A stretch of DNA of 63,732 nucleotides, counting the filler, from Reclinomonas americana ATCC 50394 (lineage: Eukaryota), in assembly GCA_048213135.1 (NCBI GenBank). It is 16 parts of 16 records of this genome, joined end to end, with 100 filler letters (N's around TTAATTAATTAA, not from the genome) between each part and the next. Parts side by side here need not be neighbours in the genome. Positions count along the whole stretch, not along the records: positions 9,553 to 16,474 come from AFZH01017995.1; 15 more parts are not named here. One strand, written 5' to 3'. Positions 3,145 to 30,549 of the stretch are shown piece by piece. How positions within the stretch are numbered: position 1 is the first letter of the stretch; every line of letters begins with the position of its first letter. The position numbers and the translations under genes are program-made. The notes under the pieces are model-generated. The model worked only from the letters and a program-made list of their open reading frames with translations. It ran no database searches and was not told where the DNA came from.

Positions 3145-3244
3145 NNNNNNNNNNNNNNNNNNNNNNNNNNNNNNNNNNNNNNNNNNNNTTAATTAATTAA
3201 NNNNNNNNNNNNNNNNNNNNNNNNNNNNNNNNNNNNNNNNNNNN

Positions 3245-9010: not shown

Positions 9011-9552
9011 GCAACGCAACTACTAGAAATATGATGTGTGTGGATCGCCAGCAGCCTTTGGATTGCGAAGGGGCGTGTCTGTGCGGTGGGTGCTTTTTTT
9101 CTTGGGTTCGTTTGTTTTTTTTTATTATGTGTGTGCGTGTGTGTCCGTCCCACCAACTGAGAAAGAGAAAGGAGAAGAAAAGGTAGCAACAAAAACAGGC
9201 GTGAGAGTCTTTTATTACGAAACAAGAGGAAGTAAAACTTGGCGGAACTGCTAGAAACGGCTTTGTCACTTCGCGCAAAGCGTCTCTGAATTCGTCTCGG
9301 GTAGGCATACAAGATGGCAATCATACGATGCGCTTATGCGTAGCGGCGAAGATCGCAGTTCTCGCGATCGACTTGTTCGAAGCTCCGCAGCGATCGCGAG
9401 AGCGAACACATGCACAAGAAAACCTGCGGCCCCTGCTCTGAAGACTGGTGAGNNNNNNNNNNNNNNNNNNNNNNNNNNNNNNNNNNNNNNNNNNNNTTAA
9501 TTAATTAANNNNNNNNNNNNNNNNNNNNNNNNNNNNNNNNNNNNNNNNNNNN

Positions 9553-9834
9553 AGATCTGCCGGCCAACCCGGAAGTGGCCTCGATGATGCTCGGCAATCC
9601 CTTCCAATTCGAAACCGTGTGCCGTCAGTGGACCGAGAAGTTTGCGTCGTCGGCGCAGCGCGCCAAGCACCACAGATCGGTGCTGGAGGTTGCCAAGCGC
9701 GCGCTGACTGCATCGGGTTCACCTGACAGGTGTGCTGCATCAGAATCTCACACAATCGTTTTTCCCCCGCTGTGTGCTCACGCACTACTGCACGCAGGGC
9801 CGTAGCAGAGAGCGTCATAGAATCACCAAAGTAA
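9553..9834 (+). CDS. Ubiquitin-conjugating enzyme (E2)-like protein, C-terminal end
   Basis: DLPANPEVASMMLGNPFQFETVCRQWTEKFA resembles the UBC C-terminal helices. One intron; TAA at 9832-9834. Confidence 0.65.
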
Positions 9835-9906
9835 AGTAGTAATGGGTTAAAAAAAAAGGACAGCAAGTTTACGGGTGGCTGTCGCGCGTGCATGCACACA
9901 TGCAGT

Positions 9907-11721
9907 CTACTTGCCGTGCGCCTCGCGATTCATACGCAAAATCTCACCGGGCGACGGCAACGGCTTTCCGTCGGTAGGTTTCCTGTTCGCGCGCAGCACG
10001 TCACCGGGGCTGGCATATGGCCGCTGCTGGAACAATGGGCCTGTGGCAGTGCTGTCGGCGGCATGAGTGGGCGAGCCCTGGCCCATGCCCCAGGAGCCAC
10101 GCGGAGCGTCCGAGTATGCGCTCGGATCCATGGGGTCCACTTCTTCAGCGGCGGCCGCTGCTCCACCGGCAGGACGCCGACGCGGTACGGGATCTGCAGA
10201 ACACACCTTTGGTATAAGCAGCGAGCTTTATGGTCAGCGAATACTTGTGCCCTCACACACCTCGCCGCGGCTCCCTCGACGCGTCACTGGCTGCGCTCTT
10301 GCCGGCAGTGCGCTCGTCCACACGCGGCATGGGTCGCACGCCGGGTTCCTGTGGGCGTTCCCACTTGGCCTCTCCCGTGTACACTGTGATGGGCGACGTC
10401 AGAGCCTGCTCCCCTTCCCATGTCGCCCCAACCAAGTCGCGCACCGTTAAAGTAATACGGGTATTGAGTGGTGGGGTCGAGTCGCTCCTCCCAGCCCTCT
10501 GGCAACGGCTCGCCTGCCGCACCGCCCACCGCTGGTGTCGCCCCTGCTGCTGCTGCCGCCGCCTGCTGACTCGCCAGGTATTGCTGGTGTTGCCAGGCGG
10601 CCTGCTGCTGCTGCTGCTGCGCGAGCATCATCTGATGGTGCTGATGTTGCAGGTGCTGCTGATGCGCCTGCGCCGCCTGCTGCAGCTCACGATGCTTCTC
10701 GTCCACATCCTTGCGCTCCCACACACTGGTGTTGCTCGTCGCGTGATAATAGTACGTCAGTCGCGATCCCGGGTCCACATGCGCCGTCCAACCCGGCGGC
10801 AGCTCGTCCTCCTGCACCACCCCACCCGCTGAGTCTAGCATGCTCGCGCGCGCATCGCCGGTGAACTCGACGCTACTCACCGGCTTTACACGCTTCTGGA
10901 GCGGTTCGTCCTCGGCCGCCTCCTCGCTTGGTCTCTTGCCGGTGGTCTCCAGCAACTCACCACAATCCGCAATGACCACTGGCGTGTGCGGCTTGTCGTT
11001 CGCTCCCGTCGGCACCTTCTCCACTCGACGCACCACATCAAAGCCCTCGACCACCCGCCCAAACACCACGTGTTTGCCGTCCAGATGACGACACGCACGG
11101 CCACTCGTCACAATGAAAAACTGTGAGCCGTTCGTGTTGGGCCCCGCATTCGCCTGCCACTCAGCATGAGCCATCCACACAGCTGCCGAAAGGTCACCCG
11201 ACAACACCACCCACCATGCTCAACACAAAGTCCTGATGCTTGTGGATAAAGTTCTCGTCTGCATTCCAGCTCAGTCAAGTGCATGCATACTGTGTGCGTG
11301 CGTGCGTGTGTGACTGCACTGACCGGCAAACTTGGCACCATAGATGGACTCGCCTCCAGTGCCATTCTTCTTGGAAAAGTCACCACCTTTTGAGCAACAG
11401 ACAACATGATGAGCACCATCTCAACTCAATCATCATCACAAATGCAACCTTGCAACATGAAGCCATCAATGATGCGATGAAACGGGCATCCCTTGTAATG
11501 CAGCGGCTTTCCTGTCGTTCTGCCCACACCTCGCTCACCCGTGCACAAGGCGCGAAAGTTCTCCGACGTCTTGGGTGTGTCGGCAAACAACTCAAACACA
11601 ACGCGACCCTCCACTGACACATGCAAAGAGAGTGTGAGTGTGAGAGGAGATGCACAGAGAGGGGAAGGAGAGGCTGTGCACCATCGCCCATGCGGATGTC
11701 GAAGAACACTCGGCGTGCCAT
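9907..11721 (-). CDS. Cyclophilin PPIase - WW - WW - PQBP1-type C-terminal domain fusion protein
   Basis: Cyclophilin motifs [67 protein letters not shown]. Two WW domains (LPPGW..YYY..SVWER; LPEGW..YYFN..AKWERP). C-terminus [16 protein letters not shown]...[22 protein letters not shown]. The introns checked by hand keep the frame. Confidence 0.92.
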
Positions 11722-11777
11722 TGTTGACAGAGTGACGGAGCAGACAGACTCGCGCTGTACTGTCTCACTGTGGAAGG

Positions 11778-12145
11778 ATGAAGAGCAGTGGAAGTGGCGC
11801 AGACACACTGCGACCGCTCACTGAGTCGCTGCTGACTCACCCAGGTCGACCACTGCTCTTTGTTGTCTGCGTCTGTGTGAGTGTGCGTCACACTCATCAT
11901 TATGTGTGATGCAGACGCGAGAACAGAACGTGGCGCGCGATATCAGGCGTCTCCGCGGCGACGAGGACCACAGACTGATGTGGAGCTCACAGAGAGACAG
12001 CGGGGAGGCGACGGGGAGGAGGATGCAGACGAGAATGCATTCCGGTCGCCTGTGGACACGGATGAGGGCGATCAGCCGGAAGAACTGCAGAGATTACTCG
12101 TGCTGCGCAAGACCGTGGTGGGCGATGATGAGGTGGAGGATGATG

Positions 12146-12181
<36 letters not shown>

Positions 12182-14549
12182 TTGATGGAGGTGATGTGGA
12201 TGCTCTGTTGGCGACACCGCGACTGCCGCGCAGTGCGTCGGTCAAGGAGTCGGCGGAGGAGTGGCGTCGCGTGGGCGGTCTCCTCGCTGCACTGCATCGT
12301 GTGAATCGGCAGTCGCAGAAGCGTGGGACTCGCAGTGCGGATGTCTCGGAAAACGACGACGATGACGATTATGACGATGATGATGGCGATGGCGACAACT
12401 TGAGTAACACGGGCCTGGTCGGGCAGGAGCGTGCGAAGCCTCGCGACATTCACCCGCACCATCGCTCCATGCACTTGGCGTCGTCGGCGCCGGCAAAGGG
12501 TGTCTCGGGCATCATGACGGCGACGCGCAATGGTGTGGCCTCGGTTCCGAACTTTGGCGGGCACAACGACAGCGGGTACTCGTTGCTCGAGGCGCTCGAC
12601 ATTTTGCCGCACGACGAGGCCGGCACCGAGTACGGCGATGGCGACAGCTCGCGCTCCGTCAATGTGAACAAGCCGCCAGAGGGCCTGCTCGGCAAGATCG
12701 ATCGCTTCTTTGCCATCTCCGCCCGACGCAGCACCATTGTCACCGAGATCATTGGTGGCGCCACCAATTTCCTCGCCACCTTTTGTTGCGTCGCTCTTGC
12801 CAGTCCCTCCTGTCTCTGCCTCTCACTCACTCCACTACGTTAGTTGTCATTCGACGAACGGTGGAACGTGTGTCGCTCATCGGCATGCCGGCCGATGCCA
12901 CGCAAGTCTCCACGGCGGTCATCTCTGGCATCTCGTGCATCCTCATGGGAGTGTTCGGCAATGCCCCGTTTGTGCTGACTGTCGGTGGCGATCCCACGGT
13001 GGTGCGGCATTGCCTTTCCATCTGTCTCTCTCTCCCCTCCCTGACTCAACAATCGCCACACAGTTTTTCGTCTCTCGCCTCGTGCAGCAGCTCGGCTACA
13101 CGTGGCAACAGGCCCTCGCCATGACGTTTCTGCAGGGCCTGCTATTATTCGTGTTTGGGGTTTGTCGCTCGCGCCTGTCTTCCCGGGTGCCATCCGTGCC
13201 GTCACTCATCCTCCGGTGCAGTACGGTATTCGTTCGTACCTCATGCGGGCATTCCCGCGTGAGATCCGCATCGGCATCAATGTCGGCTCGGCGCTGCTGC
13301 TCGGTCTCAGCGGCCTCCGTGTGATGGGCTTTGTCGATCCAGTCGGCATTGACGATCCACCCACGTATACGTATCAGTTGCGTGCGGGTGCCCCTACCCC
13401 TACTTCTATCGTTTGTTGCTGGTTGTGTTTGCCGCGTACTTAGCCCATATGCCAGGGTATTACTGGCGACGGCAACACTCGTGCTCGTGGTGTACCTCTT
13501 CAACTTCCTGGCCGAGCTCGGCACTTCCCCCGTGCGTCGCATCATAGGGCGACTGTCGGTGATTATTGGTGCGCTCGCCTGCACTGTCGTGTCGATCATC
13601 ATATGGGCGGCTGCGCCGTCGGAGCGGCATTTCTTGTCGACCCCATTCAACAACTTCTCGTGGTCCATGTCGGCCATTGCCTTCAAGCTGGACTTCAACT
13701 TTCCCAACCCCCGGTTCATTCTCTACGTCGTTGCGTTGGCCCCTCCCCCCTTCGTCACTATCGATGTCTCGTGCGGAGCTGACGCCATTCTCTTCTGTGC
13801 AACAATCATCAGCTGGCCATGCTCGGTCTGTTGTTTCTGAGTGCACTGGGCACGCTGCTCGGCTGCTCTCAGCTGTTCCCGTTGTCGCGTGGTGACGGCG
13901 GTCGCGAACTGAAACTGTACGAGACGGCCGATCGTGTGCGACGGATCATGCAAATCACCGGCTTTGCCACCATGTTCTCGTCGGCACTCGGCATGCCGGC
14001 GGCGGTACCCTATGTCGACTCCACCGTCGGCATCCTGATGGGTGCACGCACGGGCCTCTGCTCGGTTTGCGTCGTCGTCGTCGTCACGCAAACACATCTC
14101 CTGCTGTGGCAAGTTGGGAAGCTGACCTCCTCGTCGCAGATTGTCACCGGCCTGCTCTTCCTGCTGTGGATCCCACTGCAGAATTTGTTCGAGTTGATCC
14201 CGCGATACTCGGTCGGCGCCGCGTACGTACTGCTGAACGCCATTATGATTATTCCTATTCGCCGTTGCGTGTGTGTGCGCGCACCCCTTCCGTGCACGAG
14301 AACTGAGTGTGATGGGGTCCGCTGCTCGCAGAGCTGCGACCGTCAGTGTCGGACTGTGTGCCATTCCTCTTTGTGGTGCTGCTGATTCCGTCGGTCCGCA
14401 ACATTGGCACGGGCACGGCCATTGGCTATGCGTTGTACTTTCTGTACTCGTTGTTCAGTCGACGTGGCGGCATTGCCACGTTGCGCACACCAGGCAAAGT
14501 CGTAATCTTCCTCATTTGTTGCATTCAGATTGCATCGCTTGACATATGA
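11778..14549 (+). CDS. AzgA-like (NCS2) purine permease with a long acidic/low-complexity N-terminus
   Basis: IDRFFAISARRSTIVTEIIGGATNFL, ILMGVFGNAPF, LGYTWQQALAMTFLQGLL, IRSYLMRAFPREIRIGI and GARTGL; many TM segments. Start inferred from an in-frame upstream exon. Confidence 0.85.
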
Positions 14550-14640
14550 TGACACAAAACAAAACTTGTTAAACAAAAAACAAACAGCAAATGTATACTG
14601 ATTAGTGCTGATAACCATTAGTTGTCCTCCTCCTTCTTTT

Positions 14641-15999
14641 TCATGGTCTCCGACCTCGCGATGAGTTGGTGGCCGACGGGCCCGAGAAGTACGGCATCAT
14701 GCTTGCAGATCTCGGCGACGCGTCCTGCAACTCGAACGCCGGTGCACCGGCCGGCATCATTCGCGCCTCCAGTTCCGGCGCAGGCAGGTTGAACCTGGCA
14801 TTGGCACCCAACTCCGCATCATGACCGGTCGACGAGGGTGTCGACGTGCCTCGGGAGGCCGTAGCACTCTTGGAGGAGAGCGGTGTGCTCTCCGTGTAAT
14901 CGTCCAGGGCGTCGTACTCGGCCGCGTGGTCCTTGCCAGAGGCACCGCTGCGCAGCATTTGCGGCATGTTCACCGGTCGCGGCTGCAGCACGTCGCCCAC
15001 CGACGTGGCCGTGGTGGTGGCAAAGAGAATCAGGATGAGTGTGTCCGGCAGCACTCTGTGTTTCATCGCGTTTGAGAGAGAGAGAGAGAGAGGAGAGAGG
15101 GAAGCCAAGGAGAATCACGCAACTCGGAAAGCACGTAGTAGCAGAGGAACACCCACACATTGGCGGCGTCGTGGAATCCTGCAAGCATGCTTGAGAATGA
15201 TGTGCATGCCGTGAGCTGGGAAAGCACATGGCACGCACCGACAATCACGATAACACCACGCGCCACTAGCGCCAGCGAGCACGATCCCGCGATGATCGCC
15301 ACCTTCAGCACAAACACTCGCTTGATCTGCAACTTGATGACACGCGTGTGCGGCGATCGATTGCACAGCAGCACCAGGCCGTAGACGACAAACAGCAAGG
15401 CCGCTCCAAAGTTACTCTGCGCAGACAAGGCGTGAGGCTCGTCGCAGTTGTTTGTCATATGCCAGTGCCACGCGACGCAACAATTGCAAAGCCAATTCGA
15501 AAGTACTGCAGTGCATCACGTCAGTCAAGGGGCGTCGAGAGACGGTGCGGGCAGAGTGGCGCGACAGGAAGAAGACGCAACATAACCGGCGATCGAGTTC
15601 ATGTCGTCATCTTCGTCTTTCTTCTCGCTGACCGACGTGTTGTAGACGATAATGGCCGTGAGATTGAGACAGTTGAGGAAGGCCAGAATGCCCACCGATA
15701 TGCGATAGGTGAACTCGGAGATGGAGACCAGCAGCTTGGCCATGGACATCCTGTTAATTGATGGATTGCACCAGTCGTGATGAACATCAACAACAAGGTC
15801 AAGTCCGTGCGCTGCGGAATCCCACACATACGCACCACATCTCCACCATGAGCGAGTAGTCCAGCAAGTAGATGCACGCGGGGAAGGTGCGGAAAAAGTC
15901 CCACGCGGGCGTCAAGTACACCTCGTCGAAGCCCTCCCATTTGGAGACACAGTTGACCTTGGCGCCCTGATAGTACCATGTAACAATGCGAACTGTGTA

Positions 16000-16030
<31 letters not shown>

Positions 16031-16372
16031 ACAGGAGAGAGGGAGGGTGTCAACATCAATTAGCAGACAGAGACTGCGTGAGTGCCGTGATCATCATCAT
16101 ATTTTCGCGCACACAGTGGAACATGTCACGCGCACGTGCTCTCCCATCACTCTTCCTGCTGCTCTTTGCCTTGAAGTGTGTGTGTGTGTCTCACTCTCTC
16201 TGTCTACACAACTGCATGTCTCTGAGAGCAGCGCCAGAAGGAAGATGACTCGTCGTCTCCAAATCGTGTGCTCATGGTGATATTCGCGGTACAACTGAGC
16301 CAGCACGGCCACAAAGAGACACGAGTAGAGACCGCCCAGGAAGTATGGGCCCACCACGTCCACACACGTCAT
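14641..16372 (-). CDS. Multi-pass membrane protein, THH1/TOM1/TOM3 (GPR137-like) family
   Basis: About seven hydrophobic segments: LGGLYSCLFVAVLAQL, FFRTFPACIYLLDYSLMVEMW, ALLFVVYG, KVAIIAGSCSLALVARG, YYVLSEVLPDTLILILF. Ser-rich tail; start uncertain. Confidence 0.65.
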
Positions 16373-16574
16373 CCTTTGCGCGCTCTCTCTCCCAGTGCTC
16401 TGTGCGCGGAGTTGTCCCGACACTGGGACGAACATCCATCATGTTTTACTTGATTGTGAAGGCGCCGGCTCTGCNNNNNNNNNNNNNNNNNNNNNNNNNN
16501 NNNNNNNNNNNNNNNNNNTTAATTAATTAANNNNNNNNNNNNNNNNNNNNNNNNNNNNNNNNNNNNNNNNNNNN

Positions 16575-17476
16575 CTCTCCCCCCTCTCCGTGAACGCAAC
16601 ATCGTTGCACCGAATGATGCAACAGCCACCGACGGCCAGGCCCACCACCAGATACACATCGACCGAGCCATCGGCACTGGCCTCACGCTGCACCGCCTGC
16701 AACGACGACACCTGACTGACGAAATCCAACTCGGCAAACTTGCTCAACGTCCACGCGCCCGCACGCTGCTCACTCTCCACCGTGTACACATACAGGTACC
16801 GATTGGCACTGCCAATCACAATATCCTTGCGCCCATGCACGCCCGTGTCGACCACCTGCATGCACGTCCCATTCGGCACCACTCGCCACGACACCACCGG
16901 ATGCATGGCCGCCGCCACTGGCATCCCATCGAACCCACCAGGCACCTGGAACACATACAGCATGCCCTCTGCTGTCAACACCATCACCGACAGCTGCCAC
17001 GAGTGCGCGTTTGAGTACGAGGCATATAGAGAACAAGCACAGTGGTGTGGAGACCTTGTCCTCGTACAACAGTGAATCGCATACAATGCATGTGATCTGG
17101 AGGCACACGAGTCGGTCTCTGTGACTGCACACACACACGTACAGGCATGAACGCGCGCAACTGTTCCGAGAGCGCGCGCCGACTGCCAACACTGTCGCAA
17201 CAGATACTTGTACACAAGCAGTGAGCCCTCTGCTGTGCCCACGACCAGTTCATTGCGCTGTTATGCAAGTGAGTGACATGTGTAGGAGGGGAGAACGCGC
17301 GCGCGTGTGTGCACTGAACTCCATCATTGTCGGCATCACACAAGACAAACGCCGACTGCACAATGGGCGCAGCAGGGAACTCAAGCTCCTCCTATTGGCA
17401 TGTAAGAGCACACAGACAGCACTTAGTGCATATCACGCACACAGACCTTGTCAAGCAGTGTCAGGCAGCGATCCAT
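16575..17476 (-). CDS. ITFG2: KICSTOR subunit ITFG2, 5' part
   Basis: Spliced N-terminus MDRCLTLLDKEELEF...AFVLCDADNDGRNELVVGTAEGSLLVYK...VLTAEGMLYVF...GRKDIVIGSANR parallels ITFG2 (LGDVDNDTLNELVVGD). Confidence 0.8.
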
Positions 17477-17655
17477 GCGCAATTCGGTGCTGCAGTCGCG
17501 TTGACTCACACTCATTGATAAATTTGTCTTGTTTGCATTGCGTGCGTGCGTGTGTGAGTGCACCACTCGCACTCTCTCTCTCTCTCCATGTGCGTGTGTG
17601 TGCATTGACTTACCCACATGTGTGTCTGTGTCTGTGTGTGTGCATTTGCAGCACC

Positions 17656-18441
17656 ATGATGATGCTACCGCTGTTGAAGACGGTTCTGCGACCGTTCTCG
17701 CTCGTGTACAACATGTTGGCGTCGGAGGTGAAGAACCTGCGTACGCCGTTCGCCACTCCGTCGGACCTGCCATGGTACCGCCGAGCAATCATCACGTACA
17801 AGAATCTGATTGAGTTCCGCGCGCCACTGATCACCACGGCGTCCACGATTGCCACCACGTACGTGCTGGGAGAGGGCGTGGCCGAGCTGATTGGGCAGGG
17901 GCACTTGGACTGGAAGCGACTGGCGGTGTTTGGAGTCTACGGCATGTTCTTGGGCGGGCCGGCGTACTTTTTCTGGTTCAAGTACCTCGACAAGGTTCCG
18001 GGTCAGTTGTTGGTGACGGGCGAGCGCTTCCGCAACTTTTACACAAGGAGCCTCGAGCGGTTCGTCTCCAACTTCCAGATCTCGGTGAATGGGCAGGTGG
18101 TGCCACCGTCGGCGGTGTCGTTCAAGTTCACCACCAAGCTCGCCATCAACAAGTGGATTGTGAAGGCCGCCAAGATTTGCATGGATCAGTTCATGTTCTC
18201 CTCCCTCTACACCCTCTTCATCATGGTCGCCATTGGCAAGATGACTGGCGAGAGCAACCACGACATCAAGGAGAAGGTGCGCGACAAGTACTGGACCATC
18301 TACAAGGCCGACTGCATTGTGTGGCCGCCGGCGCAGCTCATCAACTTCACCTACGTGCCACCACAACTCCAGCCCATCTACGTCAACGTACTCAACATTC
18401 TCTGGAACGCCTACCTCTCGTTCCAGCTGGGTGGGCACTGA
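17656..18441 (+). CDS. Mpv17/PMP22 family membrane protein, intronless CDS
   Basis: PLITTAS..LGEGVAE, DWKRLAVFGVYG..WFKYLD, KICMDQFMF, YKADCIVWPPAQLINFTYVP..YVNVLNILWNAYLS. Confidence 0.93.
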   Translation: MMMLPLLKTVLRPFSLVYNMLASEVKNLRTPFATPSDLPWYRRAIITYKNLIEFRAPLITTASTIATTYVLGEGVAELIGQGHLDWKRLAVFGVYGMFLGGPAYFFWFKYLDKVPGQLLVTGERFRNFYTRSLERFVSNFQISVNGQVVPPSAVSFKFTTKLAINKWIVKAAKICMDQFMFSSLYTLFIMVAIGKMTGESNHDIKEKVRDKYWTIYKADCIVWPPAQLINFTYVPPQLQPIYVNVLNILWNAYLSFQLGGH

Positions 18442-18822: not shown

Positions 18823-20701
18823 ATGAGTTTTCTGCTGAGTGCCAAGTCTGCGGTGGAGGGCTGGATGCAGGATCATCCATGGCTGACTGTGGCCATCAGT
18901 GCAGCAGTCGCCGGTGCTGCAGCAGGCGGCTCCGTCTACAGCAAGCTGACTGGTGAGGCAGACACACACAGGTGCACATGTCGTCCCATGTCGCGCCTCT
19001 CGCTCACGCACTCTCTCGTGCCACAGAGACGCAAAAGACGCTGAAGGTCACGCGTGAGGTGCTCACCACGGCCAATGTCCGCGCCAAGGAATTCCGTGAT
19101 CGGGTGAGTCGCATGAGTGCGCTTGTGAGTGTGTGCCTCTCTCTCTGACACACACACACACACACACACACACAGACGGAGGCATTGGCCAAGATCTCTG
19201 GCGCCAATGTCAACATGGTGCCGTATGACACCACCCCACAGTATGACTTGGCGTACCTGGAGGCGCTGCGTGGAGGTCAGTGCATCTCACGCTGCAGATG
19301 CTTGTCTGTCTGTCTCTCATCACTCTGTGAGTGCAGCCAGTGACTTGGAGAAGTTCGAGGCGGCGTTTGATGTGCTGCGCGAGGTGCTGATGAAGGAGAT
19401 TGGGCAGTACGAGATCCCCGAGGATGCGATCACGTACATTCGTGAGATGTTTGACTACACGTCCAAGGGTGGTGCGTGGCCGTCTTGTCGCTCGCTCCCT
19501 TGCGTGCACGCGCGTGAGTTGACGCTTGTCTGGGGAATGCAGGCAAGATGAACCGCGGTCTGGCCGTGGTGCACACGATGAAGGCGATCCTCGGCCGTGA
19601 TTTGACCACGGAGGAGACCTTCAAGGCGCACGTGCTCGGCTGGGCGGTGGAGCTGGTGTGTCTCCTTGTTGTCCTCCTCCTCGTTCTTCCCCGCCGTTGC
19701 GATCCTGACCGCGAGTGCCATGCGTCGCAGCTGCAAGCGTTCTTCCTGGTGGCCGACGACGTGATGGATCAGTCGCCGACACGACGCGGTCGCCCGTGCT
19801 GGTACCGCGTGGACAAGATCGGTTTCAAGGCCATCAACGACTCGTTCATTCTCGAGTCGACCGTGTACCGGCTGCTGCGCAAGTTCTTCCGCACGGAGCC
19901 GTACTACGTGGCGCTCTTTGAGATCATGCAGGAGACGACGTATCAGACGGAGCTGGGCCAGTTGCTCGACCTCAGCTCCGAGCACCTCGACTACGACGAG
20001 TTCACACCAGAAATGTTGCGTCTGGCCACAGTGCAGTTCGTCGTATTGTTTTGGGTGTGGCCAACACGGCAAGCATGCAGGCACACAAACATTGTCAAGT
20101 ACAAGACGTCGTTCTACTCGTTCTACCTGCCCGTGGCGATGGCCATGCTGGCGACGGGACGCACGGAGAAGGCCGAGTTTGACACGGCGCGCGACATTCT
20201 CGTCGAGATGGGAGTCTACTTCCAGGTGCAGGACGACTACCTCGATTGCTACGCCGATCCGGAGGTACTGGGCAAGGTGAGGCTCGACGAGAATGCAGAG
20301 TGCCCGGTGTTTCGTTGTTTTTCTGACGAACAATCGTGCGGTGCAGGTCGGCACCGACATTGAGGATCGCAAGTGCTCGTGGCTGATTGTGCAGGCGCTG
20401 CCATTGTGCTCCGATGCACAACGCAGACGGCTCGAGGTGCGTGTGTGCAGAGGAGCGCTGCACCCTTCCCTCGTCACTCACTGCTCCTCCGCCTCCCCTG
20501 CAGGACAACTACGGCAAGAAGGATCGCGCGGCGGTGGCGCAGGTCAAGGCCGTGTACCGAGAGCTCAACCTGGAGCGTCTGTACGAGGAGTACGAGGCGC
20601 GCGTGTACAAGTCACTCACCGGCAAGATCAGCGGCGTCACCACGCTCCCACAAAAAGTGTTTACCATGTTCCTGGAGAAGATCTTCAAGCGCAGCAAGTA
20701 A
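18823..20701 (+). CDS. FDPS: Farnesyl diphosphate synthase with an N-terminal hydrophobic extension
   Basis: GGKMNRGL, FARM FFLVADDVMD, RRGRPCWY, QTELGQLLDL, KYKTSFYSFYLP, SARM YFQVQDDYLD, GKVGTDIEDRKCSW and C-terminal KIFKRSK. Confidence 0.96.
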
Positions 20702-28671: not shown

Positions 28672-29620
28672 TTATTTCTGCATCGAGTAGAAGAGAGAGA
28701 GAGAAAGAGACACGGTAAGTCCCGGGTTGCACACACACACAGACATACAATTAATCAAGCAAGCACGAGGAACAAACCTGCACCGGCAGGAAGAGCTTGA
28801 ACTCGGGTGGGAGCTCGTCTTCAGAGTACAACCGATCCGAGAAGTAGATGCGGCGGATGCGGCAGTTCGCGTGGATTTGCACGCGCAGCGTCTCAACTTT
28901 TTGTGTGGAGACCATCGCGTGAGCAACATGCAAGCAACAACAGGCGGTGGTGGCGTGAAGCGCAACTGTAGTTTGTGCCATATGCACGCCGAGTGAAATC
29001 GGAGAGGTTGAACTGGATCTGGTTCCAGCCCTCGTCAAGCCGCATCGGCATTGTGCAGATGAAGGGCTTGACTCTCGTTGTGGACTGGTAGTTGGATGCT
29101 CGGAATCGTCGTCGGACGTTCTTGTCGTCGAGCACTTGCACCTCGAACGTGAAGTACTTCTTCAACTGCAAAAGGGCGAAGAGAGGTGAGCAGCCAACGA
29201 CCAGGGAGGGAGAGAGGAGAGGGTGGACAAAATCAACGCACGTTCTTGATAATCATGACCAAGAATGGCAGCTTGATGCCGAGCGTCTTTTGCGGATCGG
29301 CAGGGCATGTGATGTAGCTGCACGCGTGCACATGTCAGCGACACGCTCCCACTCTCTCCCTCCCTCCCTTGCGCAGCACGACGAAACTTGGTTGACACAT
29401 TCGTGCCAACGACCTCCAACACACTGCTTTGAATGTCTGGGTCCGTAATTCGTTTTATGTGACCATTACGGACTGCGGCAGCAGCAGCAGTGAGCACAGC
29501 GCACACACCCAGTCAGTGACACTGCACACACACACCTTTCTTGTCCCAGATCTGCAGTGGCTTACTGCCGATCGAGTAGAGGATCGAGAGGAAACCAGAC
29601 TGGAACGTGTTCTTGAACAT
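28672..29620 (-). CDS. CFAP20: Cilia- and flagella-associated protein 20 (BUG22), six exons
   Basis: [39 protein letters not shown]...[27 protein letters not shown]...[18 protein letters not shown] closely matches the known protein. Confidence 0.99.
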
Positions 29621-30549
29621 GCTTTCTTGCTCCTCTTGACACACACACACACACGCAAAAAGGAGCTGCTTGTGCCAACTGCGCGCACAGACACACAGAG
29701 AGAGCGCATGGTGAGCAACAACAAATGATGACAAAAAACACAACGCCTCACATAACGCATGACTAAAAAGCCATCGAACTTTCTCCGACACGCACACATG
29801 AGCTCTTTCTGACAGCACGTGCACAGCGAGGATAGAGAGAGTGGGGGAAGAGAGAAGAGGAGCAAGAGCAGCAAACAAGACAAAGAAGGAAAAAACACAC
29901 ACAACGCACAGAGTCCATATGTCACAAGCGTTGCCGTTGATTTTACAACGCACAATCGACTCTTTTTTTCACACACGCACACTCTCACTGTGAATCACTC
30001 CAAAGCGTGCACAGAGAGAGAGCATTGTTGTTTCTGGTAAGAGAGGAGAAGAAAACATAAGAGGGCGAGTGCCAGTGTGTTTGCGTGCAAGAAAAAAAGC
30101 AAGCGGACATCTCCACGCCCGAGATGTGCACCCCCTCTCTTGTCTCTCCATTCCCCGCTCTGCCTCTTCCCTCTGTGTCTCTTACTGCTCCGCGCACGCA
30201 CACACAGGCACACGTTGACATTACGTGCAACACACAACGCACAAACACAAAAGAGAATCAACACACACACACATACGCGCGCACGACAAACCTCTCTTTT
30301 TCTCTCACTGTGCTCGGCTGCGAGTTGCTGCTGCTGCTGTTGTGGAGGAAGGCAAACAGAGAAAAGAGAGAGAGACCCAATCAACGCGCTCTCGGCTTCT
30401 CGAAACAAAAAAAGTTGTGTTTGCTCGCTGCTAAACGACTCGCGGGCAATGCGCGGGAGCAACAACGCACAAACGCAGTGACTCATCACCGGCATTGGCC
30501 GGTTCACTCGACGGGCGGGTGGAAGCCATACCCAGGACTTTTGTGTGCT

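Follow-up and report, generated by a model that had tools for sequence, protein, structure and literature searches.

In a 63,732-nucleotide stretch of the draft genome of Reclinomonas americana ATCC 50394 (NCBI GenBank assembly GCA_048213135.1), called the window below, we find one gene on the minus strand (11721..9907) whose N-terminal third is a cyclophilin and whose C-terminal two thirds are a homologue of polyglutamine-binding protein 1 (PQBP1). We read it as a single gene for a nuclear adaptor-enzyme of 476 amino acids (aa), or 453 aa, in which a cyclophilin is mounted on a plant/algal-type PQBP1 homologue, and we give this reading as a whole a slightly better than even chance; where the protein acts, its binding to the U5 protein Dim1 (U5-15kD), its activity and its clients are what we infer from the sequence. 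The fusion itself is very probably real at the DNA level, and the complete protein of cyclophilin, two WW domains and PQBP1 tail has a somewhat lower likelihood of being the main product. The architecture is apparently unique, although it is built from two well-known families: a PQBP1 with two WW domains is already ordinary, and it is the cyclophilin head that is unusual.

The junction between the two families lies inside one exon. Exon 5 (10445..11153) is a single open frame without an in-frame stop, and the same 236-aa translation contains both the cyclophilin family PF00160 and the WW family PF00397, the latter as two stretches (expect value, E, 6e-17). It encodes the C-terminal half of the cyclophilin, a linker, the first WW domain (WW1), a Gln/His/Ala tract and the first half of the second WW domain (WW2). 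The cyclophilin has no stop of its own; from its closing IADCGELL the frame continues through the linker into WW1, and both halves of the protein are thus in one frame. The PQBP1 C-terminal domain, followed by the stop codon, is in exon 7 (9907..10193), which belongs to no Pfam family; its match is to the peptide of human PQBP1 that was co-crystallised with U5-15kD (4bwq_B, E 1.2e-8; 4bws_B, 1.5e-8; 4cdo_A, 1.8e-7). An earlier note on this DNA had proposed one spliced frame leading from a cyclophilin through WW1, the Gln/His/Ala tract and WW2 to the PQBP1 signature, and the gene model, Pfam, the PDB match and the alignments place every one of these elements where that note had put it.

Gene structure and splicing

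The window consists of 16 contigs of 1.0-13.7 kilobases (kb), separated by spacers of 44 N, TTAATTAATTAA and 44 N (1529-1628, 3145-3244, 9453-9552 and 12 further sites). Because separate contigs have been joined, synteny beyond 9553..16474 is meaningless for the gene, which lies entirely within this one contig (AFZH01017995.1). The reconstruction has seven exons and six introns and gives a coding sequence of 1431 nucleotides (nt), with the start ATG at 11721..11719 and the stop at 9909..9907, both in agreement with the coordinates of the earlier note. All the features of the gene given here are on the minus strand.

Exon 1 (11682..11721) supplies the start codon and the first 13 cyclophilin residues, and exon 2 (11449..11613) the N-terminal half of the cyclophilin with the GKPLHYKG loop and the active-site residues of FHRII..GFMLQ. 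Exons 3 (11324..11386; 20 residues) and 4 (11215..11258; 14 residues) continue the domain according to the gene model and the alignment, exon 4 being also recovered by tblastn of the model, while exon 6 (10261..10383), assigned in the same way, holds the second half of WW2 and a basic spacer. In the model all six introns have GT..AG ends and are 61-68 nt long, among them intron 4 (11214..11154), intron 5 (10444..10384) and intron 6 (10260..10194, 67 nt). Homology supports five of the six junctions as gapless in the spliced model. Junctions 1-4 are inside the cyclophilin, where the spliced residues 4-171 can be aligned over their whole length, and without a gap at the junctions, to the cyclophilins P0175 of Aphanomyces euteiches (250 bits), P0274 (247 bits) and P0318, a plant CYP40 (230 bits). 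Junction 5 is inside WW2, and here the spliced sequence aligns without a gap to the WW domains of two PQBP1 homologues (P0005 and P0007).

These boundaries refine what had been said of the fusion exon. The cyclophilin and WW1 do share an exon, as the earlier note held, but intron 5 splits WW2, of which just the first 20 residues lie, together with WW1, in the exon of the cyclophilin. The open reading frame (ORF) that the note gave as 10284-11210 runs from stop to stop over 10284..11219, and introns 4 and 5 cut into it to leave the true exon 5, 11153..10445. Its claim that the fusion does not depend on a splice guess stands for the cyclophilin and WW1; it does not extend to the tail, which is joined only through intron 6, without homology support. 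The six donors (GTGCAC, GTTGCA, GTCAGT, GTGGGT, GTGCGC and GTGTGT) have the canonical GT and a weak consensus after it. The suggested link between the protein and unusual donors is unsupported: all six introns are GT..AG and nothing connects the donors to the protein.

A 69-nt segment of the linker, GTGAGT..CAG at 10880..10812, may be an optional seventh intron; the frame is kept either way, and its GC content is 0.67, with 0.63 for the exons and 0.54 for the six introns. Neighbouring genes are very near. A divergent ORF on the plus strand begins about 160 nt upstream of the ATG (11722-11900), and a convergent one, also on the plus strand, ends about 100 nt past the stop codon (9806-9906); neighbours so close to the gene suggest a compact genome.

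The cyclophilin domain

Both large pieces of the cyclophilin exceed the Pfam gathering score of PF00160 (21.7), exon 5 with 70.2 bits (E 3e-19) and exon 2 with 48.7 bits (E 1e-12), and once spliced the domain is complete and collinear (residues 4-171, 230-250 bits). Residues 2-54 of exon 2 align to residues 18-63 of human CypA (1ak4_A), with a seven-residue insertion that is the GKPLHYKG divergent loop, and residues 1-67 of exon 5 to CypA residues 101-164. The catalytic Arg, Phe, Gln and His are all kept: FHRII..GFMLQ reaches CypA residue 63, and HLDGKH falls within 101-164. We take these four to be R55, F60, Q63 and H126 in CypA numbering, and Trp121 to be the Trp that contacts cyclosporin A (CsA), a position held here by His. 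The earlier note had described both the catalytic pattern and the divergent loop, and the CypA alignments bear it out on these points. It had also singled out the His at the CsA-binding Trp position. This residue is indeed present, just ahead of LDGKHVVFG, where the best solved match, 9ls5, has Trp; it is nonetheless not distinctive, since P0175, P0274 and P0318, the three aligned cyclophilins, all have His there, which makes it normal for the class.

Placement within the family is less simple. For the N-terminal half the closest solved structure is cyclophilin 40 (1ihg_A, 87 bits), and PPIG also matches (2wfi_A, 5e-21). For the C-terminal half (10950..11153, ending in IADCGELL) it is 9ls5 (9ls5_A, E 4e-25), followed by the small nuclear ribonucleoprotein (snRNP) cyclophilin PPIH (1mzw_A, 2e-20). 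When the full domain is scored, FKBP-cyclophilin fusions, PPIG-like proteins and Cyp40 proteins come out about level, and the matches of the cyclophilin are taxonomically scattered. We therefore rejected assignment to a single orthologous subfamily, given that the N-half is nearest to Cyp40, the C-half to 9ls5 and PPIH, and the whole domain ties. The domain is best described as a cyclophilin of the divergent-loop class with an intact active site and a Cyp40-like N-half, which would be expected to have isomerase activity.

The linker and the WW domains

Between the cyclophilin and WW1 lies a charged linker of 48 residues (10806..10949). Its GC content by codon position, 0.71/0.48/0.77, is coding-like when set beside that of the whole coding sequence (0.68/0.49/0.71), and the other two frames of the segment have three stops and one stop. 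The linker contains KR, 12 residues and then KRVK, which resembles what we take to be the consensus of a bipartite nuclear signal. WW1 (10713..10802; LPPGW...YYYH...WER) corresponds to residues 118-147 of the exon 5 translation, where Pfam reports a WW stretch. The low-complexity tract rich in Gln, His and Ala (10512..10703) separates it from WW2 (10352..10505; LPEGW...YYFN and 11 further residues). PF00160 and PF00397 were the only families that Pfam found in the exons scanned; the parvulin (PpiC/rotamase) domain was not found, nor were TPR repeats, a trait of Cyp40, in exons 5-7.

The PQBP1 tail and its two docking motifs

The tail encoded by exon 7 has 235 relatives at E <= 0.01 and 355 representatives at E <= 0.001, many of which, the best matches among them, are named polyglutamine-binding protein 1; among the matches listed, the best are from green algae, Chlorokybus and Rhodelphis. 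In the ESM Atlas there was no usable match for exon 5 or the tail. The family alignment identifies a 14-residue signature of the DPMDPSxYSDAPRG type at 10096..10137. Behind it comes the first docking motif (motif 1; 9985..10041, 19 residues), which aligns to the crystallised human peptide and whose core, Y-A-S-P-G-D-V-L, agrees with the YxxPxxVL motif that binds U5-15kD. A second copy of 13 residues with Leu at the Tyr position (motif 2) follows at 9928..9966. The two 12-residue repeat units of the tail are separated by seven residues, and the pair has a BLOSUM62 score of 41. When the tail was shuffled 5000 times, 3 shuffles scored as high, which makes the repeat better than chance.

The Leu-type form is also the sole motif in five homologues (P0422, P0448, P0462, P0465 and P0480), which have Leu (RPLPSPG..) where YxxPxxVL has Tyr. 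One of these, P0465, is from the ctenophore Pleurobrachia bachei, and another, P0462, is from the euglenid Peranema trichophorum and has the motif RPLPSPGAVLGA. Because the Leu form is the only motif of these five proteins, we regard motif 2 as a natural variant of the docking motif and not as a chance look-alike, and the same replacement shows that not every homologue has the Tyr by which the motif is said to be defined. The shuffling result and these homologues uphold the proposal that motif 2 truly duplicates the motif that binds U5-15kD. A second copy downstream of the first was seen in 0 of the 241 other family members with a recognisable motif, 81 of which have at least 20 residues after it.

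In six green-algal homologues (P0003, P0006, P0007, P0016, P0036 and P0447) another YxxPSxV[LI]-like motif, such as NYQPPSAVLAQ or YKPPSAVLKE, occurs far upstream, close to the N-terminus. Chlorophytes may thus also have two Dim1-dock-like motifs per protein, in a different arrangement.

How rare the architecture is

We looked for the same combination of domains from both sides. PF00160 was found in 0 of 120 tail relatives longer than 165 aa, and PF00397 in 0 of 120 exon-5 relatives of 414-2000 aa and 0 of 120 of 129-413 aa, among the matches listed. When the spliced model was used with local HMMER, a cyclophilin was found in 0 of 258 PQBP1-tail proteins; conversely, the tail was found in 0 of 240 cyclophilin matches and a WW domain in 0 of 240, even at E <= 10. 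The tail survey covered the best 120 of 235 and the best 150 of 355 matches, and of the 258 tail proteins 92 have at least 300 aa and 53 are fragments of less than 170 aa. Partner domains among the 240 cyclophilin matches include FKBP, TPR, parvulin, thioredoxin, SYF2-type and others, never WW. The expectation that this architecture is not already common is thus borne out by the 258 tail proteins, none of which has a cyclophilin; close relatives of R. americana may be unsampled in the survey.

The literature agrees as far as our full-text search extended, which found no description of a cyclophilin-PQBP1 or cyclophilin-WW fusion, and where a review of protozoan prolyl isomerases deals with WW domains it places them only with parvulins (PMC11357558). 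A tblastn search of the window with the model, which looked for a stand-alone PQBP1 there, matched only the gene itself. A metagenome scan with the tail gave one AT-rich locus (29% GC), which has the tail motif and, within 10 kb upstream, no cyclophilin; it was rejected as a relative. Three metagenome proteins of 481-503 aa (P0148, P0151 and P0155) combine a cyclophilin (PF00160) and a parvulin/rotamase domain (PF00639, PF13616) in one chain.

Comparison with known proteins

Apart from its head, the protein is a conventional member of the PQBP1 family. WW and tail are collinear in 206 of the 258 PQBP1-tail proteins, and two WW domains are typical of the plant and algal members, so that the two-WW form is an ordinary one; homologues from Selaginella (P0005, 387 aa), Chlorokybus (P0001, 563 aa) and Tetraselmis (P0003, 596 aa) have the same collinear arrangement of WW, WW and tail. 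Human PQBP1/NPW38, whose peptides were crystallised with U5-15kD (4BWQ, 4BWS and 4CDO), likewise has WW followed by signature and docking tail. What sets the R. americana protein apart from the family are the N-terminal cyclophilin (0 of 258 relatives) and the tandem second motif downstream (0 of 241 relatives). It differs from animal PQBP1, as described in PMC9180999, in having a Gln/His/Ala tract between the WW domains and no hepta/di-amino-acid repeat region. A short basic spacer precedes the tail instead, and since the plant and algal homologues examined are also without such repeats, that region defines the animal form only.

Among cyclophilins, Cyclophilin 40 (PPID; 1ihg) has in common with our protein the loop GKPLH[FY]KGCPFHRII, and His replaces the Trp in the plant CYP40 P0318 as well. 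In contrast to Cyclophilin 40, our protein has no TPR repeats, its C-terminal partner is a PQBP1 module, and the C-half of its cyclophilin is nearer to 9ls5 and PPIH. Multidomain nuclear cyclophilins reach the spliceosome via RRM, WD40, U-box or RS modules, and to our knowledge none of PPIE, PPIL4, PPWD1, PPIL2, PPIG and PPIH uses WW domains or a PQBP1 tail. The principle is similar: a targeting module, attached or bound, carries a cyclophilin to the splicing machinery. These multidomain nuclear and spliceosomal proteins are treated in a review (PMC6315705). Pin1/Ess1 follows the same logic, with one or more WW modules tethered to a prolyl isomerase, as outlined in PMC11357558. Unlike Pin1/Ess1, the protein described here has a cyclophilin (PF00160) and not a parvulin (PF00639), the reverse order of domains, two WW domains and an additional Dim1-binding tail. 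It is an analogue of Pin1/Ess1, not a member of that group.

Reality of the fusion

Several observations weigh against our reading of the locus. The gene model comes from genomic sequence, the draft assembly is fragmented and the contig that holds the gene is 6.9 kb long; conservation cannot back the fusion, because no relative with the same fusion was found. The open linker is weak evidence when taken alone, the chance that 48 codons have no stop being about 0.34 at the stop frequency of the contig. Intron 6, the junction that attaches the tail, is located in the non-conserved basic spacer, and its basis is only GT..AG, the length of 67 nt and the frame; if it is retained, the frame stops after three codons (...REPRRGV, then a stop) and the protein ends right after WW2. 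As to the domains themselves, WW1 has Lys in place of the conserved Pro after the second Trp, and the core of motif 2, L-P-S-P-G-E-I-L, is without the Tyr and the Val of YxxPxxVL. Pfam did not find the DIM1 family in the 129 ORFs of at least 150 aa in the window.

One way to account for such observations is that the locus yields mainly separate or truncated products, the full fusion being at most a minor isoform, which we consider improbable. The products could be a tail-less protein of cyclophilin and two WW domains, made when intron 6 is retained and an immediate stop is met, or a stand-alone PQBP1 begun at the internal Met of ...ARASMLDS..., which is in frame in the linker, 12 codons upstream of WW1. 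The very close neighbour genes, suggesting a compact genome, would also suit this explanation. It has to contend with the uniformity of the six introns, all in the same narrow size range and with GT..AG ends, with a cyclophilin that lacks its own stop in any reading of exon 5, and with a linker that looks coding. The same linker bears on the idea that the draft assembly created the fusion artificially, either because a sequencing error erased the stop codon between two adjacent or unrelated genes or because the contig is a chimera. A single substitution would turn any of several linker codons into a stop, no other genome has the fusion, and the 16 contigs of only 1.0-13.7 kb indicate a highly fragmented assembly. 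However, the two halves are in frame with each other, the 48 intervening codons resemble coding sequence in their GC content by codon position, the junction contains no repeat or N run, and chance is unlikely to have produced an in-frame chimera of coding-like composition. We consider an artefact very improbable.

Proposed function

The human protein provides the framework for a functional proposal. Its C-terminal domain is reported to bind U5-15kD/Dim1 via YxxPxxVL, a motif described as essential for this binding, and the protein is also reported to be drawn to RNA polymerase II's C-terminal tail (PMC9180999); NPW38/PQBP1 is counted among the human B-specific spliceosomal proteins (PMC5364666). 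In R. americana, a cyclophilin gene was probably fused to the 5' end of a PQBP1 gene. The ligands of the product's two WW domains would be proline-rich or of the phospho-Ser-Pro kind, and the disordered tail would use its tandem Tyr-type and Leu-type motifs to dock on Dim1/U5-15kD of the U5 snRNP. With the linker and the Gln/His/Ala tract as flexible tethers, the isomerase would reach prolines in partners held by the WW domains or by the tail. Candidate clients would be proline-rich splicing factors, the RNA polymerase II tail and the neighbours of Dim1 in the tri-snRNP or B complex. By homology to human PQBP1/NPW38, the arrangement would tether the isomerase to the B complex.

It could also be that the fusion is real and its role mainly transcriptional, a possibility that we regard as unlikely, though it deserves attention. 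The protein would then be a cyclophilin-based functional analogue of Pin1/Ess1 acting on Ser-Pro bonds of the RNA polymerase II tail, its WW domains would bind the phosphorylated tail of the polymerase, and its Dim1-binding tail would merely couple it to splicing. A WW domain and a prolyl isomerase on a flexible linker are indeed the layout of Pin1, where the WW domain accompanies a parvulin (PMC11357558), and the reported recruitment of PQBP1 to the polymerase tail (PMC9180999) fits as well. Yet the strongest conservation is in the Dim1-binding tail (about 70% identity to plant homologues), where the motif is duplicated, and this suggests that U5 is the key partner.

A broader interpretation treats the gene as a "Rosetta stone", from which PQBP1 and a cyclophilin of the divergent-loop (Cyp40/PPIG-like) class would be predicted to cooperate at the Dim1 site of the tri-snRNP or B complex in eukaryotes generally. 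We think this quite improbable. It would add, no less speculatively, that the lineage hard-wired an existing partnership and doubled the Dim1 dock, in which case one molecule could bridge two Dim1-bearing particles; a similarly doubtful use of the doubled dock would be to hold on through remodelling.

Other sequences in the window

The remaining features lie on contigs unlinked to the gene. A farnesyl-diphosphate synthase ORF at 19518-20360 on the plus strand (PF00348, E 5e-51) has its nearest matches among avian, plant and human enzymes; between two aligned blocks it has some 32 additional residues (156-187), which could be an insertion or an unspliced in-frame intron. An exon at 29516-29968 on the minus strand has the start of a CFA20 (cilia/flagella-associated protein 20) domain, whose presence suggests that the organism builds flagella or cilia. 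Other coding pieces, at 48876-50051 and 17125-18438 on the plus strand and at 43659-44885 and 61418-62580 on the minus strand, comprise a seven-repeat WD40 protein, an Mpv17/PMP22 C-terminus, a PH-domain protein, and RING-finger and protein-kinase fragments. Long ORFs at 62418-63731, 53187-54086 and 55681-56538 are built from short tandem repeats, some of them LLSSP/EERRG units on the two strands, others runs of the ER/RE dipeptide that GA-rich microsatellites encode, and tracts rich in TG/CA are frequent in introns and spacers. Rfam gave no family match in the window.

Implications

Although the value of the finding is limited by its origin in one gene model of one draft genome, it touches on a wider question, what PQBP1 does in the spliceosome. 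Loss of the Dim1-binding motif of PQBP1 is reported to lead to human intellectual disability (PMC9180999). If the cooperation of PQBP1 and a cyclophilin at the Dim1 site were general, it would point to a proline switch beside Dim1 as a regulated step of spliceosome activation. As we read it, the R. americana protein would repeat the Pin1 design with a cyclophilin, and would be the first PQBP1 homologue in our survey to have two tandem Dim1-docking motifs. The fusion suggests that adaptors of the PQBP1 type deliver, or cooperate with, proline isomerisation near Dim1 or on the ligands of their WW domains, a hypothesis that is testable in model organisms.

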